The notes under the pieces: model-generated
The model's input: the letters and a program-made list of their open reading frames with translations, nothing else
Told to the model about the DNA's origin: nothing
The model's database searches: none
DNA from: a virus
Taxonomy: Duplodnaviria; Heunggongvirae; Uroviricota; Caudoviricetes
IMG/VR virus record: IMGVR_UViG_2526164690_000043
Span: 1 to 13,417 of that record
DNA length: 13,417 bases
Reading direction: 5' to 3' (one strand)
Translations under genes and position numbers: made by a program
Shown: piece by piece, positions 1,836 to 12,213 of the stretch
How positions within the stretch are numbered: position 1 is the first letter of the stretch
How the letters are laid out: every line of letters starts with the position of its first letter

Positions 1836-2738
1836 ATGAATACTGGATATTCTCCCGAACAAGGGCGGGGCTTCGTTCGTCCTGAAAAACAGAATCTGCA
1901 AAATTTTGCCGAAATTATTCCGGTTATTTCCGGCCTTACTGGCGGGAGTGAAACCAATATTGTTAACGCCAGAGCGTTGCAGATGTTTGATGATAAAAAG
2001 GGAGTAAATTTAACTTACACCCCTGACGGCAATCAGAATATGAGCATTATCTCTGAGTCAGGTTTCTACAAACTAATAAAAACAAAAAGCGCCCCGTTGC
2101 CGGAGCGCCTTTGTGAACAATTAACCTACTGCGCAAAAAATGAATCTGAGCAGTGGGATTATATCAACCATGTGGAGAAGCGCCACAATTGCCGAATAAC
2201 GGGCAAAACAAAGGCCACCCGCTACGGTGGCCCCTCGACACAAGCTACACGTTATCCCCAACGCATGAGCATTGCCAACAATGCCACATTTGCGGCTGGT
2301 GGGCAATGCAATCAGTCTGGTTCAGTTCGTTGCCATACCTGCAATGAGCGCTTTTCCCTGTACTCTTTAAGGAATTGCTCAAGGGCAAAAGCACATGGCG
2401 CGAATCTTTCTGATTCATGCTCTATCTTTCTGCGCCGTCTTTTCCGTGCCGGTGATAATGTTTTGGTCAATTCTTTATCGGTCATTGTGTTGTCCTGCAT
2501 AGCAATGCGCCGTAGTTACTCACACCACGGCGCTGGTGATGGTTACTCCTGCTCTTTGGCCTTGCGACGCTGGCGGCGTTTGATCTCACCTTTAACGGCA
2601 GTAACTATAAATTGCGCCTTGCTTTCACCTTCATCTAAATTTTTTCTAAGTCTGCAACAACATCATGCGGGAATCTGGCATTTAACTGTTGCGACTTATT
2701 ATTTGTTGAACCTGTTGCCATTACTGAATCCTCTCTAA
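1836..2738 (+). CDS. Hypothetical protein; the first ~120 codons look coding, the 3' extent is doubtful
   Basis: 300-codon open frame. The N-terminal part (to about ...WDYINHVEKR, ~2200) has ordinary composition, with ISESGFYKLIKTKSAP faintly reminiscent of Bro-N/antirepressor proteins. The C-terminal two thirds are Ser/Leu/Arg/Cys-rich with rare codons, overlap a minus-strand RHH gene and run through a minus-strand terminator hairpin. The true stop may be hidden by an indel. Confidence 0.35.
   Translation: MNTGYSPEQGRGFVRPEKQNLQNFAEIIPVISGLTGGSETNIVNARALQMFDDKKGVNLTYTPDGNQNMSIISESGFYKLIKTKSAPLPERLCEQLTYCAKNESEQWDYINHVEKRHNCRITGKTKATRYGGPSTQATRYPQRMSIANNATFAAGGQCNQSGSVRCHTCNERFSLYSLRNCSRAKAHGANLSDSCSIFLRRLFRAGDNVLVNSLSVIVLSCIAMRRSYSHHGAGDGYSCSLALRRWRRLISPLTAVTINCALLSPSSKFFLSLQQHHAGIWHLTVATYYLLNLLPLLNPL
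2202..2232 (-). terminator. Candidate rho-independent terminator for a leftward transcript
   Basis: Stem GGCCACC (2213-2219) / GGTGGCC (2226-2232) with a 6-nt loop. On the minus strand the hairpin is followed by TTTGTTTTG (complement of 2202-2212). Confidence 0.5.
2312..2500 (-). CDS. Hypothetical small basic protein downstream of the RHH gene
   Basis: 62-aa minus-strand ORF (MQDNTMTDKELTKTLSPARKRRRRKIEHESERF...) lying between the RHH gene and the minus-strand terminator. No recognisable family; could be the second gene of a two-gene leftward operon or spurious. Confidence 0.3.
   Translation of the reverse strand: MQDNTMTDKELTKTLSPARKRRRRKIEHESERFAPCAFALEQFLKEYREKRSLQVWQRTEPD
2543..2721 (-). 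CDS. Arc/Mnt/CopG-like ribbon-helix-helix DNA-binding protein (candidate repressor), interrupted by a 1-nt indel
   Basis: Minus-strand ATG at 2721-2719 gives MATGSTNNKSQQLNARFPHDVVADLEKI, then a stop at 2637-2635. The adjacent frame continues LDEGESKAQFIVTAVKGEIKRRQRRKAKEQE to a stop at 2545-2543. Joined, the ~59-aa product has the RHH strand-helix-helix pattern (compare P22 Arc ...FNLRWPREVLDLVRKVAEENGRSVNSEIYQRV...). The break lies in an A6/T3 run (plus-strand 2637-2645); one extra base restores the frame. Confidence 0.55.
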
Positions 2739-2740
2739 GT

Positions 2741-2835
2741 TGGTGCGATTCAGTATACACAAAAAAAATTTCAGAGAAAGACTTGAAGTGCGATTCACTT
2801 ACTGATAGGTTAAAAACGAATGGTGCGATGCACCA
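2741..2835. promoter_or_regulatory. Divergent control region with three copies of a (G)GTGCGAT motif, one inside a perfect palindrome
   Basis: TGGTGCGATTCA at 2741-2752, GTGCGATTCA at 2789-2798, and the palindrome TGGTGC-GAT-GCACCA at 2821-2835. The region sits between the leftward RHH gene (start 2721) and the rightward early operon (start 2912). Candidate operator sites. Confidence 0.45.
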
Positions 2836-2911
2836 AACAACAACGCCCCGCAGTGGTGGCACACATGCAGGGCGTCTAACCACCAACGATAGCGAAAGTA
2901 TCGAGGTAGCT

Positions 2912-3112
2912 ATGAGAAATCATACCATACACCCGCAAGGGCGGGACTCGCACAACCTGAATAAATACATCTGGCGTTTTATCGCCCTGAGCACGGCACA
3001 ACCGCGCGTGATTACCATTGAGGCCACCAGCGAACAGGAAGCACGCCAGCAATCTCCGGCTGGCTGCGTGATGGTATTTGCTGCCCGTATTCGTCAGGGG
3101 GTAGGCTTATGA
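2912..3112 (+). CDS. Small protein resembling host cell division inhibitor Icd-like proteins of P4-type elements
   Basis: ATG at 2912 preceded by GAGG. The sequence YIWRFIALSTAQPRVITIEATSEQEARQQSPAGCVMVFAARI fits the W-x-F-x-A ... P-x-V ... SE-x-EAR ... FAAR pattern recalled for Icd-like proteins. The ORF track offers a longer form from 2783; the extension has no good start context. Confidence 0.55.
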   Translation: MRNHTIHPQGRDSHNLNKYIWRFIALSTAQPRVITIEATSEQEARQQSPAGCVMVFAARIRQGVGL

Positions 3113-9930: not shown

Positions 9931-9931
9931 T

Positions 9932-11146
9932 ATGTGGCCTTTTCAGAAGAAAAAAAAGAGCAGCGCTAGCATGACGCTTGATGAGTTTATGGCGCTGGCT
10001 GGCACATCGAACACGGGGGCGGGTGAGTACGTATCATCGGGGACAGCGGAATCACTGCCCGCCGTCATGAACGCCGTCACGGTCATCTCTGAGGCGGTGG
10101 CTACCATGCCGTGTTACCTGTACCTGGTACGCAATGAGAAGGGGAAGGAGGCCCGAGAGTGGCTTGATTCTCATCCGGTCGATCACATCCTCAACGAGCG
10201 CCCGAACGCATGGCAAACCCCCTACCAGTTTAAGCGAATGATGATCCGCCACTGCCTGTTAAACGGTAATGCTTATGCGGTGATTCAGTGGGGGCGTGAT
10301 GGTTTTCCGGTGGCTTTACATCCTTACCCGCCGCAGTCGGTGAACGTTGAGCAGACAGGTGAGCATAACTGGCGCTACTGCATCACTGACGCCTACACCG
10401 GAAACACCCGCAACTATTTACCGTGGGAGGTTCTCCACCTTCGTTACTCCACGGATGACGGTTTTATGGGGCGCTCACCTGTAACCATCTGCCGCGAATC
10501 GCTGGGGCTTGGGCTGGCCCAACAACGCCACGGCGCGAGCGTGATGCGTGATGGCATGATGGCGGCAGGGGTTATCACGTCAGGCGAATGGCTGGACGGC
10601 GTGAAGGGCAAACAGGCATTAGCCGCACTGGAACGCTACAAAGGGGCCAGAAACGCCGGAAAAACGCCCATCCTTGAAGGGGGTATGAGCTATCAGCAGC
10701 TGGGCATGAGTAATCAGGATGCTGAATGGCTGGCCTCCCGTCGCTTCACCATTGAAGACATCGCCCGAATGTTCAACGTCTCGCCGATTTTTCTGCAGGA
10801 ATACAGCAACAGCACCTATAGCAATTTCAGCGAGGCAAGCCGCGCATTTCTCACCATGACGATGCGCCCGTGGCTGGCGAACTTTGAGCAGCAGATAAAA
10901 AACGCCCTGCTGGTGGCCTCGCCTGTACCTGGTATCCGGTATCAGGTGGAGTTTGTACAGCGCGGACCTGTTACGGGCCACACCTGGCGAACGCTTTGCC
11001 ACCTATGAACGCGGCATCAAATCCGGCGTTATGTGCCCGAACGAAGCCCGCGAACGTGAAGGGCTGTCCCGCGTGATGGTGGTGATGAGTTCAGCCAGGC
11101 ATGGAAACAGGAAGTAAAAATCAGCGAGGGAGAAAAACCGGAATGA
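9932..11146 (+). CDS. HK97-family portal protein, with two compensating 1-nt indels near the 3' end
   Basis: The open frame from ATG 9932 stops at 11006-11008. The +1 frame encodes the expected portal C-terminal sequence ...YSADLLRATPGERFATYERGIKSGVMCPNEAREREGLS, and the original frame resumes as PRDGGDEFSQAWKQEVKISEGEKPE with a stop at 11144-11146 that overlaps the next start (ATGA). The breaks are at a TTT/G site near 10952-10955 (extra base) and a CCC run at 11068-11070 (missing base). Confidence 0.82.
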
Positions 11147-11481
11147 ACATAGGGCGACTGCGTGACAGGGTAACGATTCAGACCCTGAAACAGACCAGGG
11201 ATATAACCGGCGAAATACTCGAAACGTGGGTGGACGGTCACACACTCTGGGCAAGCGTGAACATGATCAGCAGCAAGGAGGCCATTTCATCGGGTGCAGA
11301 ACTGGCGACTGGAACGGTAAGGATATGGATACGCTACAGGAAGGACATCAACGCCACCAGCCGGATAAAGGTCAATACGGGGCCGCTGGCGGGGCGTGTA
11401 CTGAATATCATCGGGCAACCGCTGCCGGATGCCGCCAGGACACGCCTTGAAATTCTTTGTCGTGAGGGCGCGGAAAAATGA
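11143..11481 (+). CDS. Phage head closure / head-tail adaptor protein (Phage_H_T_join-like)
   Basis: ATG 11143 overlaps the portal stop. MNIGRLRDRVTIQ...TLWASV...IRYRKDI...RIKV...LNII...LEILCRE fits the head-closure family pattern. The ORF track's 11101 start lies inside the portal 3' end. Confidence 0.75.
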   Translation: MNIGRLRDRVTIQTLKQTRDITGEILETWVDGHTLWASVNMISSKEAISSGAELATGTVRIWIRYRKDINATSRIKVNTGPLAGRVLNIIGQPLPDAARTRLEILCREGAEK

Positions 11482-11774
11482 CAGAAGAACTTATCACCCT
11501 GGAAGAAGTGAAACTCCATTGCCGCATCGATGGCGACGAGGAAGACCAGTTAATCAGCGGATACATTGCCGCATCGCTTGAGGCGTGCCAGATACATATA
11601 GGCAGGCGCTTTGATGACGGGCTGGAGTTCACGCCGGCCATAAAGATTGGCTGCATGATGTTTATCGCTCACCTGTACGAGAATCGCCAGCTGGTAGCGG
11701 ATAACGCAAAAACACGCGTACCCATGACGATAGGCGCACTCTGGACGGCTTACCGTGATGTGGGGGTGTACTGA
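11478..11774 (+). CDS. gp6-like head-tail connector protein
   Basis: 98-aa ORF with an ATGA start overlap. The N-terminal ITLEEVKLHCRIDGDEEDQLISGYIAAS is characteristic of the gp6-like connector / DNA-packaging family. Confidence 0.75.
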   Translation: MTEELITLEEVKLHCRIDGDEEDQLISGYIAASLEACQIHIGRRFDDGLEFTPAIKIGCMMFIAHLYENRQLVADNAKTRVPMTIGALWTAYRDVGVY

Positions 11775-12213
11775 TGCCGTGGCAACCATTAAGACGATGT
11801 ACAGAACCAGGCTGTAACAGGCGCGTTAAGTCCGGCAAGTGTGAGGAGCACAGGCGGGCGGCATGGCGTGCAGAGGATGCCAGACGAGGACACCGCCGCG
11901 CGCGTGGGTACTCCAGACAGTGGGAAAAATACCGCGCCATGTATCTGAGTAAAACCCGTTATGCGTGCGATGCCTTGAGAAGGGGATATATACGCCCGCC
12001 GTGGTGGTGGATCACATTATCCCGATTAATGGCGGTGATGATGTTCTCTTCTGGCCCGAATGGAACCATCAGCCATTGTGCCAGGCGTGTCATAACCAGA
12101 AAACGAAGTGGCTTGATCCGGCAACAAAAAGCAAGCGTGCCGCAGGTGGATTTCGTGAAGAGGAAGAACGGGCCGCTAACCGCAATAACTGGATGTATGA
12201 CGCTGATGAATGA
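11774..12213 (+). CDS. HNH endonuclease (terminase-associated), interrupted by a 1-nt indel at the A run 11951-11954
   Basis: The N-terminal part (MPWQPLRRCTEPGCNRRVKSGKCEEH...RGYSRQWEKYRAMYLSK) is in one frame; the HNH core (NPLCVRCLEKGIYTPAVVVDHIIPINGGDD...WNHQPLCQACHNQKTKW) is in the -1 frame, ending at 12213. AAAA to AAAAA at 11951-11954 joins them. The ORF track's 201-aa read-through from 11774 is an artefact of this shift. Confidence 0.8.

Follow-up and report, generated by a model that had tools for sequence, protein, structure and literature searches.

The frameshifts in a capsid-forming PICI (cf-PICI) of E. coli DEC8C are, with a probability of about 0.9, errors of the deposited draft sequence and not mutations of the bacterium. 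The alleles concerned are private or recur within one sequencing project, they come without accompanying substitutions, and they coincide with a duplicated module. Taken at face value, the frameshifts would have the island labelled a dead satellite; as draft-assembly errors, they would have it counted as a cf-PICI that is probably functional. The true DEC8C island is most likely an intact cf-PICI with proteins identical to those of O103, O111, and O157 strains.

The window, i.e., the whole 13,417-nucleotide stretch analyzed here, is part of contig AIGH01000024.1 from the 2012 draft genome of DEC8C (O111:H-; GCA_000249835.2), a member of the DECA-collection with the WGS prefix AIGH. The contig ends 1 nt past the window, within terL. 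The island is a 15-kb element of the EcCIEDL933 kind, sited between roxA and phoQ. Its main features are as follows.

1-13417, + strand: capsid-forming PICI, EcCIEDL933 type, terL cut by the contig end
1-1230: int
1595-1783: Phage_AlpA HTH
4662-6059: AAA_25 helicase (RepA-family)
6824-13417, + strand: 6.6-kb morphogenesis and packaging module, SSB to terL
9358-9930, + strand: HK97-type prohead protease gene (Peptidase_S78), with two changes
9932-11146, + strand: portal gene (Phage_portal), with five changes
11774-12213, + strand: HNH endonuclease gene, frameshifted at 11951-11954 (A4; A5 in orthologues)

By Pfam and PGAP names, the gene order is int, alpA-like HTH, early genes, RepA-family helicase, SSB, PerC, capsid, protease, portal, head closure, connector, HNH, terS, and terL; in a complete orthologue of the island, the last genes are terL and one small ORF. 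Under the criteria of the published EcCIEDL933 paper, this is a cf-PICI: an island in the 10-15 kb range that has its own attachment site, a terminal int gene, alpA, and rep genes, followed by capsid, protease, portal, and head connector genes and then hnh, terS, and terL, with no tail or lysis genes.

Length changes in the window

Indels were called against intact orthologues in complete genomes. An earlier note had listed five single-base indels, all at homopolymer runs. All five are present, but the list is incomplete, as the orthologue comparison gives 14 single-base length changes. Beyond the five, the protease has a second change, the portal N-terminus has three, and the capsid gene has an in-frame pair; two more lie at or just past a 74-aa gene, and one is intergenic. 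Nor do homopolymer runs account for every case, as four changes (7895, 9397, 9967, and 10956) are insertions that lengthen no homopolymer. Apart from the HNH site given above, the changes are the following.

2640-2645, - strand: T6 run (A6 on the coding strand), T7 in orthologues, inside the YlcI/YnfO (RHH-like) gene 2543-2721
6192-6199, no strand: AAAAAGAA (A5GA2), A9 in orthologues, in the intergenic gap separating the RepA-helicase gene from the following ORF
7862-7863, + strand: GG, GGG in orthologues, last codons of the 74-aa hypothetical gene 7645-7868
7895, + strand: extra T, not a homopolymer extension, in the 3' foot of a terminator-like hairpin (7880-7895) that is followed by a T5 tail
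8962-8969, + strand: AAAAATAA, AAAAAATA in orthologues (A5TAA vs A6TA), capsid gene, in-frame
9365-9369, + strand: A5, A6 in orthologues, protease codons 3-4
9397, + strand: extra A in the protease gene, not a run extension
9940-9943, + strand: T4, T3 in orthologues, portal N-terminus
9950-9957, + strand: A8, A7 in orthologues, portal N-terminus
9967, + strand: extra T at the portal N-terminus, not a run extension
10956, + strand: extra T beside TTT 10952-10954, C-terminal part of portal
11068-11070, + strand: CCC, CCCC in orthologues, C-terminal part of portal

The base missing at 2640-2645, where an indel in an RHH gene had been placed near 2637-2645, cuts the 59-aa YlcI/YnfO protein after residue 27; the repaired protein matches NCBIfam NF041551. 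The GG at 7862-7863 destroys the stop codon of the 74-aa gene and extends its product to 113 aa. At 8962-8969, one A seems to have shifted across a T, turning capsid residues KY into NN. Both the 113-aa product and the KNN capsid variant are found, among about 15 billion proteins, on a single contig, that of DEC8C.

The protease, portal, and HNH proteins are 190, 403, and 146 aa long, respectively, and uninterrupted in the orthologous and paralogous islands. The protease indel described earlier is present, although the extra base, an A at 9397, sits 2 nt upstream of the GG/AAA to which it had been assigned. Nor does one base suffice to repair this gene: from the annotated start two corrections are needed, with MGEKL* read between them. 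A single correction is enough only for translation from the internal ATG at 9372. The three changes at the portal N-terminus add up to a net +3. Farther along the gene, the pair reported near 10952 and 11068 was recovered as the extra T at 10956 and the CCC in place of CCCC. It had been thought that this mutually compensating pair might be tolerated; however, two in-frame stop codons lie between the shifts, the ORF stops at 11008, and thus the pair could not be tolerated. The truncated portal product occurs on one contig only among about 15 billion proteins. In the HNH gene, AAAA at 11951-11954 stands against AAAAA in orthologues, as the earlier reading had it.

The changes are unevenly spread. 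Twelve of the 14 fall in 6824-13417, and nine have a neighbor at most 40 nt away, a clustering beyond chance (simulated P about 3e-5). Unique sequence is error-free over its first 4.5 kb, i.e., an 1840-nt flank plus window positions 1-2639. The miscalled fraction by run length is 1/1 at 9, 2/8 at 7, 2/21 at 6, 1/73 at 5, 1/145 at 4, and 2/454 at 3. This run-length dependence is real but not decisive, since replication slippage in vivo also produces homopolymer indels and predicts the same trend.

Comparison with complete genomes and project drafts

The orthologous islands compared were those of O103, O157:H7, two O111:H11 strains, EH031, and 2313, together with the paralogous tqsA island and EcCIEDL933. 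The six orthologues, the tqsA paralogue, and EcCIEDL933 agree on one allele at every indel site compared, and all nine orthologous or paralogous loci carry the non-window allele. Frequencies were taken over the complete E. coli genomes holding each segment: the window allele is found in 0/71 for the T6 in the YlcI/YnfO gene, 0/349 for the protease, 0/356 for HNH, and 0/358 for either member of the portal C-terminal pair. At these four sites, no run-length polymorphism was seen in the 71-358 complete genomes. The portal N-terminal alleles were compared against 9 fetched loci. One check proposed in the earlier note, comparison with orthologous islands, returned single uninterrupted ORFs with the other run length in complete genomes. 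A third, degenerate copy that could have donated the indel alleles was also sought, and none was found at the sites tested in 5,426 complete genomes.

Substitutions tell the same story. Changes private to the window in 6824-13417 comprise 12 indel events and 2 substitutions, whereas the complete genomes differ among themselves by about 118 substitutions and 4 indel events. The ratio of 14 indels to 2 substitutions in the window, set against 4 to 118, gives a Fisher P of 7e-14, or 2e-6 if 28 paralogue-type substitutions (see below) are taken as real. Every undisrupted gene of the DEC8C island is identical or nearly identical to its orthologue.

The T6 allele is common only to DEC8C and DEC10B, the latter an unrelated O26:H11 strain of human origin from Australia (prefix AIGQ) that was sequenced within the same project. 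Over 20.9 kb, DEC10B differs from the complete O103 genome RM8385 by 0 substitutions and three one-base deletions, all in runs of 6-7, one of them a T7-to-T6 call identical to that of the window. At the site matching 6192-6199, DEC10B has A9. In DEC8C itself, an 8.2-kb non-island flank shows 0 substitutions and 3 homopolymer deletions; one, T8 to T7, frameshifts the effector gene espW and reduces its called product from 352 to 153 aa. In the same year, the same institute produced other E. coli drafts from 454 Titanium 3-kb paired ends with Celera 6.0 (PMC3491183), and PMC3534400 describes 454 as subject to indel errors at long homopolymers. The DEC8C platform was probably flow-based (454-type) sequencing as well.

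Related O103 and O111 genomes have two copies of the right-hand module, one in the roxA-phoQ island and one in the tqsA island, with 98% identity between them. The two copies lie about 0.6 Mb apart in the related complete genomes, and both complete O111:H11 genomes hold both. All 28 paralogue-type substitutions of the window fall in 6824-13417. In 6824-7823, the copies differ by 3-6.6% and the window is clean; beyond 7823, they differ by about 1-2% in most stretches, and it is here that the module's indels and all 28 paralogue-type alleles are found. The window is a fine mosaic of both copies: position 9423 is orthologue-type, 9429 paralogue-type, and 9432 orthologue-type again, and switches 3-6 nt apart are seen both there and at 11714/11732/11738. 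The mosaic and the contig end suggest that the assembler merged reads of the two copies.

Origin of the frameshifts

Two processes together probably account for these observations. One would be the undercalling of run lengths in long homopolymers across the assembly, a signature of flow-based (454-type) sequencing; it would explain the T7-to-T6 change in the YlcI gene, the A9 event, and the frameshifts outside the island. The other would be confined to the right half (about 7.8-13.4 kb), which exists twice in the lineage at about 98-99% identity. In that half, reads from the two copies were probably merged during assembly, or the available reads were all poor, and the outcome would be the column-by-column mosaic, the contig break inside terL, and dense extra one-base indels, including the non-homopolymer insertions and the close plus/minus pairs. 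The earlier note had favored sequencing or assembly error over pseudogenization, and the intact orthologues, the absent alleles, and the DEC10B control support that preference. The window alleles are missing from independent high-quality assemblies of the locus, the same error type appears in another assembly of the project and outside the element, and indels exceed substitutions relative to natural variation.

Real pseudogenization would make this a decaying cf-PICI with slippage frameshifts in YlcI, protease, portal, and HNH, incapable of making or filling capsids. The indels are, after all, in the deposited sequence, most of them at short runs prone to slippage, and real frameshifts do occur in the island family: in strain 2313, a hypothetical gene is marked by PGAP as carrying a 16-bp deletion. 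In EcCIEDL933, knockout of any packaging gene abolishes transfer; as each of these genes is needed for transfer, an island that has become domesticated would be free to decay. Such an island should not, however, show 14 indels against 2 private substitutions, with its undisrupted genes at or near identity to the orthologues. The disruptions are not inherited by related strains and other signs of decay are missing; no other genome has any tested allele save the T6 of the DECA draft DEC10B, and the same error type marks that unrelated strain and the non-island flanking genes. Four insertions are not slippage events, and the plus/minus pairs 1-34 nt apart make no selective sense, as stop codons lie between their members or the second member is intergenic. 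Wholesale decay is accordingly very improbable. A mixture is also very unlikely, if slightly less so. Here most indels would be errors, one or a small number would be genuine alleles of DEC8C, with the T7-to-T6 and A9 changes as candidates, and the paralogue-type substitutions of the mosaic would reflect gene conversion between the two cf-PICIs of the genome. Long A/T runs are the most mutable in vivo, and an intergenic T run after int does vary between T7 and T8 in complete genomes. Moreover, paralogue-type head-closure alleles are found in 73 complete genomes, some of them single-copy, which indicates that the modules recombine in nature. Yet T6, absent from all 71 complete genomes, turns up in exactly two DECA drafts, whose strains differ in serotype, host, and continent; the spacing of 3-6 nt between allele switches is below the length expected of conversion tracts; and six diverse genomes show no variation in the orthologous module.

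It is very improbable, in more general terms, that all or some of the indels are real and that the cf-PICI is caught in mid-inactivation, having exchanged short patches with its tqsA sister by gene conversion and lost protease, portal, and HNH. If true, this would be a natural case of satellite domestication, or of rescue in trans by a co-resident satellite with a near-identical packaging module. Deliberate decoding or switching, be it programmed ribosomal frameshifting, transcriptional slippage, or phase variation at A/T runs, is barely credible and was rejected. Several shifts do lie within A or T runs of 5-8 nt, and such runs can support slippage in other systems. However, in every orthologue and in the paralogue each gene is one unbroken ORF, so recoding is neither needed nor conserved; stop codons follow directly after the shifts, as in MGEKL*; the runs are invariant in the 71-358 complete genomes; and four events lie outside runs altogether. 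The earlier failure to see programmed frameshifting thus holds up, with neither the split ORFs nor any slippery sites conserved in the orthologues.

With draft error as the preferred reading, the consequence reaches beyond this island. DECA-collection drafts (the AIGx WGS series) would carry homopolymer undercalls about every 3-7 kb, with worse in duplicated mobile elements, and pseudogene calls drawn from them, such as those for espW, the YlcI gene, portal, and HNH, should not be trusted without resequencing.

Comparison with known systems

The window resembles 454 draft assemblies in its one-base length errors, the frequency of which rises with run length, which are confined to this assembly or reappear at identical long runs in other assemblies of the project, which lack accompanying substitutions, and which also strike flanking non-island genes. 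It differs in the four insertions that are not run extensions and in a density about five times higher in the duplicated module; this fivefold density calls for an extra cause, either merged repeat copies or poor coverage. A collapsed repeat, i.e., a chimeric consensus, is matched in that the mosaic starts where copy divergence falls to about 1-2%, the contig end lies within the repeat, and both copies are found in related complete genomes. A similar but coarser mosaic would be expected from real gene conversion between them.

As for the element itself, EcCIEDL933, the prototype capsid-forming PICI of E. coli O157:H7 EDL933, occupies the same roxA-phoQ insertion site. The two islands have int, an alpA-like gene, replication genes, capsid, protease, portal, connectors, hnh, terS, and terL in matching order, both are devoid of tail and lysis genes, and their morphogenesis modules are 97.2% identical over 6.6 kb. 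The replication modules differ, with a RepA-family AAA_25 helicase in the DEC8C island and a DUF927 protein in EDL933, and the early genes are 78-89% identical or unalignable. Helper-phage-induced transfer in island-made small capsids with phage tails has been demonstrated for EcCIEDL933 only. The frameshifts are found in the DEC8C copy as deposited, whereas EcCIEDL933 is free of them.

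One-base length changes and their distribution

By exact-sequence protein look-ups, E. coli DEC8C, an O111:H- strain from a calf in Scotland (PMC2211750), is the sole source of the protein variants specific to the window. The window spans 8855-22271 of contig AIGH01000024.1 (22,272 nt; GCA_000249835.2), which stops 1 base past it, within terL. The closest complete genomes (O103 RM8385, two O111:H11, two other strains and O157:H7; 99.2-99.7% identity) carry orthologous islands in which all genes are intact. Base-by-base comparison of the window with these orthologues established 14 one-base length changes, as follows.

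One-base length changes in the window relative to the orthologous islands
2640-2645: T6, T7 in orthologues; YlcI/RHH-like gene
6192-6199: A5GA2 in place of A9
7862-7863: GG, GGG in orthologues
7895: extra T; foot of a terminator-like hairpin
8962-8969: A5TAA, A6TA in orthologues, scored as two changes; KY becomes NN in the capsid
9365-9369: A5, A6 in orthologues; protease codons 3-4
9397: extra A; protease
9940-9943: T4, T3 in orthologues; portal N-terminus
9950-9957: A8, A7 in orthologues; portal N-terminus
9967: extra T; portal N-terminus
10956: extra T; portal
11068-11070: CCC, CCCC in orthologues; portal
11951-11954: A4, A5 in orthologues; HNH

The earlier note had named five of these from the sequence alone, in the RHH, protease, portal (a pair) and HNH genes. 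Each is borne out by the comparison, with the other allele in the orthologues at every compared site, although the list was incomplete, as nine further changes are present. Seven insertions balance seven deletions, and so the window and its orthologue are equal in length. The three changes at the portal N-terminus sum to a net +3. The frame between the two protease changes reads MGEKL and then a stop, and two stop codons lie between the C-terminal portal changes. Thus, neither pair is a tolerated compensation, contrary to what had been considered possible for the portal.

Wherever the window differs within 6191-13417, one allele is common to all six orthologous islands, which represent four serotype backgrounds. 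At every indel site, the orthologues are matched by a paralogous island in tqsA, which carries a near-identical module, and by EcCIEDL933, the prototype capsid-forming PICI (cf-PICI) of O157:H7 EDL933. Short-segment searches over 5,426 complete E. coli genomes found the window allele in none of the genomes holding the segment: 0 of 71 for the YlcI run, 0 of 356 for HNH, 0 of 349 for the protease pair and 0 of 358 for the portal pair. Among ~15 billion proteins, a single contig accounts for each of the KNN capsid, the truncated portal and a 113-aa read-through product.

Mutation spectrum and probable errors beyond the island

Changes private to the window in 6824-13417 amount to 12 indel events but just 2 substitutions (10819, 11636), versus ~118 substitutions and 4 indel events in the same island among complete genomes (P = 7e-14; 2e-6 when 28 paralogue-type substitutions are taken as real). 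The miscalled fraction by run length is 1/1 for runs of 9, 2/8 for 7, 2/21 for 6, 1/73 for 5, 1/145 for 4 and 2/454 for 3. Four events are insertions that extend no run, and in another an A seems to have shifted across a T. There are also three plus/minus pairs, 1-34 nt apart, to which no selective meaning can be attached, and 9 of the 14 events lie no more than 40 nt from another (P ~3e-5). This clustering and the odd event types resemble a stretch covered by a few poor reads, unlike independent mutations.

Real variation is also seen in the island family. The T run after the integrase stop codon (window 1230-1237; L002 and strain EH031, L007) is T7 or T8 among complete genomes; therefore, genuine homopolymer polymorphism exists in the island, but it is intergenic. 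The complete genome of strain 2313 (L009 3647-3996) has a 16-bp deletion, flagged by PGAP as a frameshift in a hypothetical early gene, an example of real damage.

DEC10B (L010; O26:H11, human, Australia), a second draft from the same project, has a WGS prefix, AIGQ, near that of DEC8C, AIGH. Comparison with the complete O103 genome over 20.9 kb shows 0 substitutions and 3 one-base deletions in DEC10B (T7 to T6 twice, G6 to G5 once), 2 of which are common to DEC8C. The G6 to G5 change, at the L010 equivalent of window ~12399, lies between a small ORF and terS; one of the three homopolymer deletions is at L004 2315. A 300-aa plus-strand ORF, 1836-2738, requires T6 and is present only in the DEC8C and DEC10B assemblies, in both of which it is annotated as a gene. 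It lacks any Pfam hit, and two genes on the minus strand, 2312-2485 and YlcI, overlap with it. Existing solely through the T6 call, it looks spurious. On the same stretch of EH031, PGAP places a 305-aa 'Icd-like' ORF (L007 2297-3214), despite normal sequence there.

The 8.2-kb flank of the DEC8C contig (L011) has 0 substitutions and 3 homopolymer deletions (in T8, T7 and T5). The T8 to T7 change, at L011 ~891 and 7.3 kb upstream of the window, falls in the T3SS effector gene espW, whose annotated product is 352 aa long in DEC10B and O103 but 153 aa in DEC8C. The truncation is probably another false pseudogene, outside the island.

Origin of the changes

Privacy, spectrum, within-project control, flank errors, run-length dependence and odd event types agree in favouring sequencing or assembly error, as the earlier note did, over pseudogenisation. 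Error passed every test run, and we put its probability for essentially all 14 events at about 90%. Real decay of the island is very improbable, as the alleles show neither inheritance nor accompanying decay. By analogy with EcCIEDL933, single-gene mutants of which abolish transfer, each frameshift, if real, would do the same. Recoding or phase variation is hardly credible: programmed frameshifting, which the earlier note had also doubted, fails because the orthologues are unbroken.

A mixture, in which one or a few alleles are real or gene conversion has occurred, is unlikely.

A second pattern bears on the concentration of the changes in the right part of the island. Related O103 and O111 genomes carry a second cf-PICI, in tqsA, ~0.6 Mb away, with an SSB-to-terL module 98% identical to window 6824-13417 (L005 9590-16180; L012 8001-14600). 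In the complete O111 genome NZ_CP077567.1 the two islands occupy 3397155-3412000 and 4011769-4028579. Leaving aside 10819 and 11636, all 28 window-versus-orthologue substitutions in 6824-13417, which lie within window 7782-13408, are the paralogue's alleles, including those at 10348-10366, 11231-11338 and 13210-13408; at 119-120 other variable sites the window has the orthologue allele. Allele types switch within as little as 3-6 nt (9423/9429/9432 and 11714/11732/11738). In 6824-7823 the copies diverge by 3-6.6% and the window is clean; past 7823 they diverge by ~1-2% in most stretches, and there the mosaic and the indels start. Paralogue alleles occupy each of the final eight variable sites, after which the contig ends. 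Gene conversion between the copies is an unlikely account of the substitutions, and bears on those only. Mosaic and contig end suggest instead a chimeric consensus, the right half of which would have been built from reads of both copies.

E. coli drafts from the same institute in 2012 were Celera 6.0 assemblies of 3-kb paired-end 454 Titanium reads (PMC3491183), and indels at long homopolymers are a recognised 454 trait (PMC3534400). We infer a 454-type platform for DEC8C; the conclusion of error is independent of platform. Caution is warranted on pseudogene calls in the DECA drafts, the 2012 collection assemblies of the AIGx series.

The island and its relatives

The island is flanked by roxA and phoQ and is organised as follows.

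Left part: integrase, AlpA-like HTH, YlcI/YnfO (minus strand), Icd-like and small early genes
Middle: DUF4222 gene, RepA-family helicase at 4662-6059, SSB, PerC
Right part: capsid, S78 protease, portal, head closure, connector, HNH, terS, terL
7247-7519 (+): PerC-family regulator gene
7880-7901 (+): terminator-like hairpin, GCCGGAGCAATCCGG then T5, between a 74-aa gene and the capsid operon

Since the island has a PerC-family gene and perC1 is reported for every LEE-positive STEC in the DECA collection (PMC3491183), the satellite may carry a virulence regulator. In the complete O103 and O111:H11 genomes, the portal proteins of the two cf-PICIs (roxA-phoQ and tqsA) are identical. The replication modules differ, with a RepA-family helicase at roxA-phoQ, a primase at tqsA and a DUF927 protein in EDL933. 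Shared packaging and differing replication modules point to modular exchange among co-resident satellites. Judged from sequence, the window's island shares architecture and insertion site with EcCIEDL933; their morphogenesis modules are 97.2% identical, whereas their replication modules are not the same.
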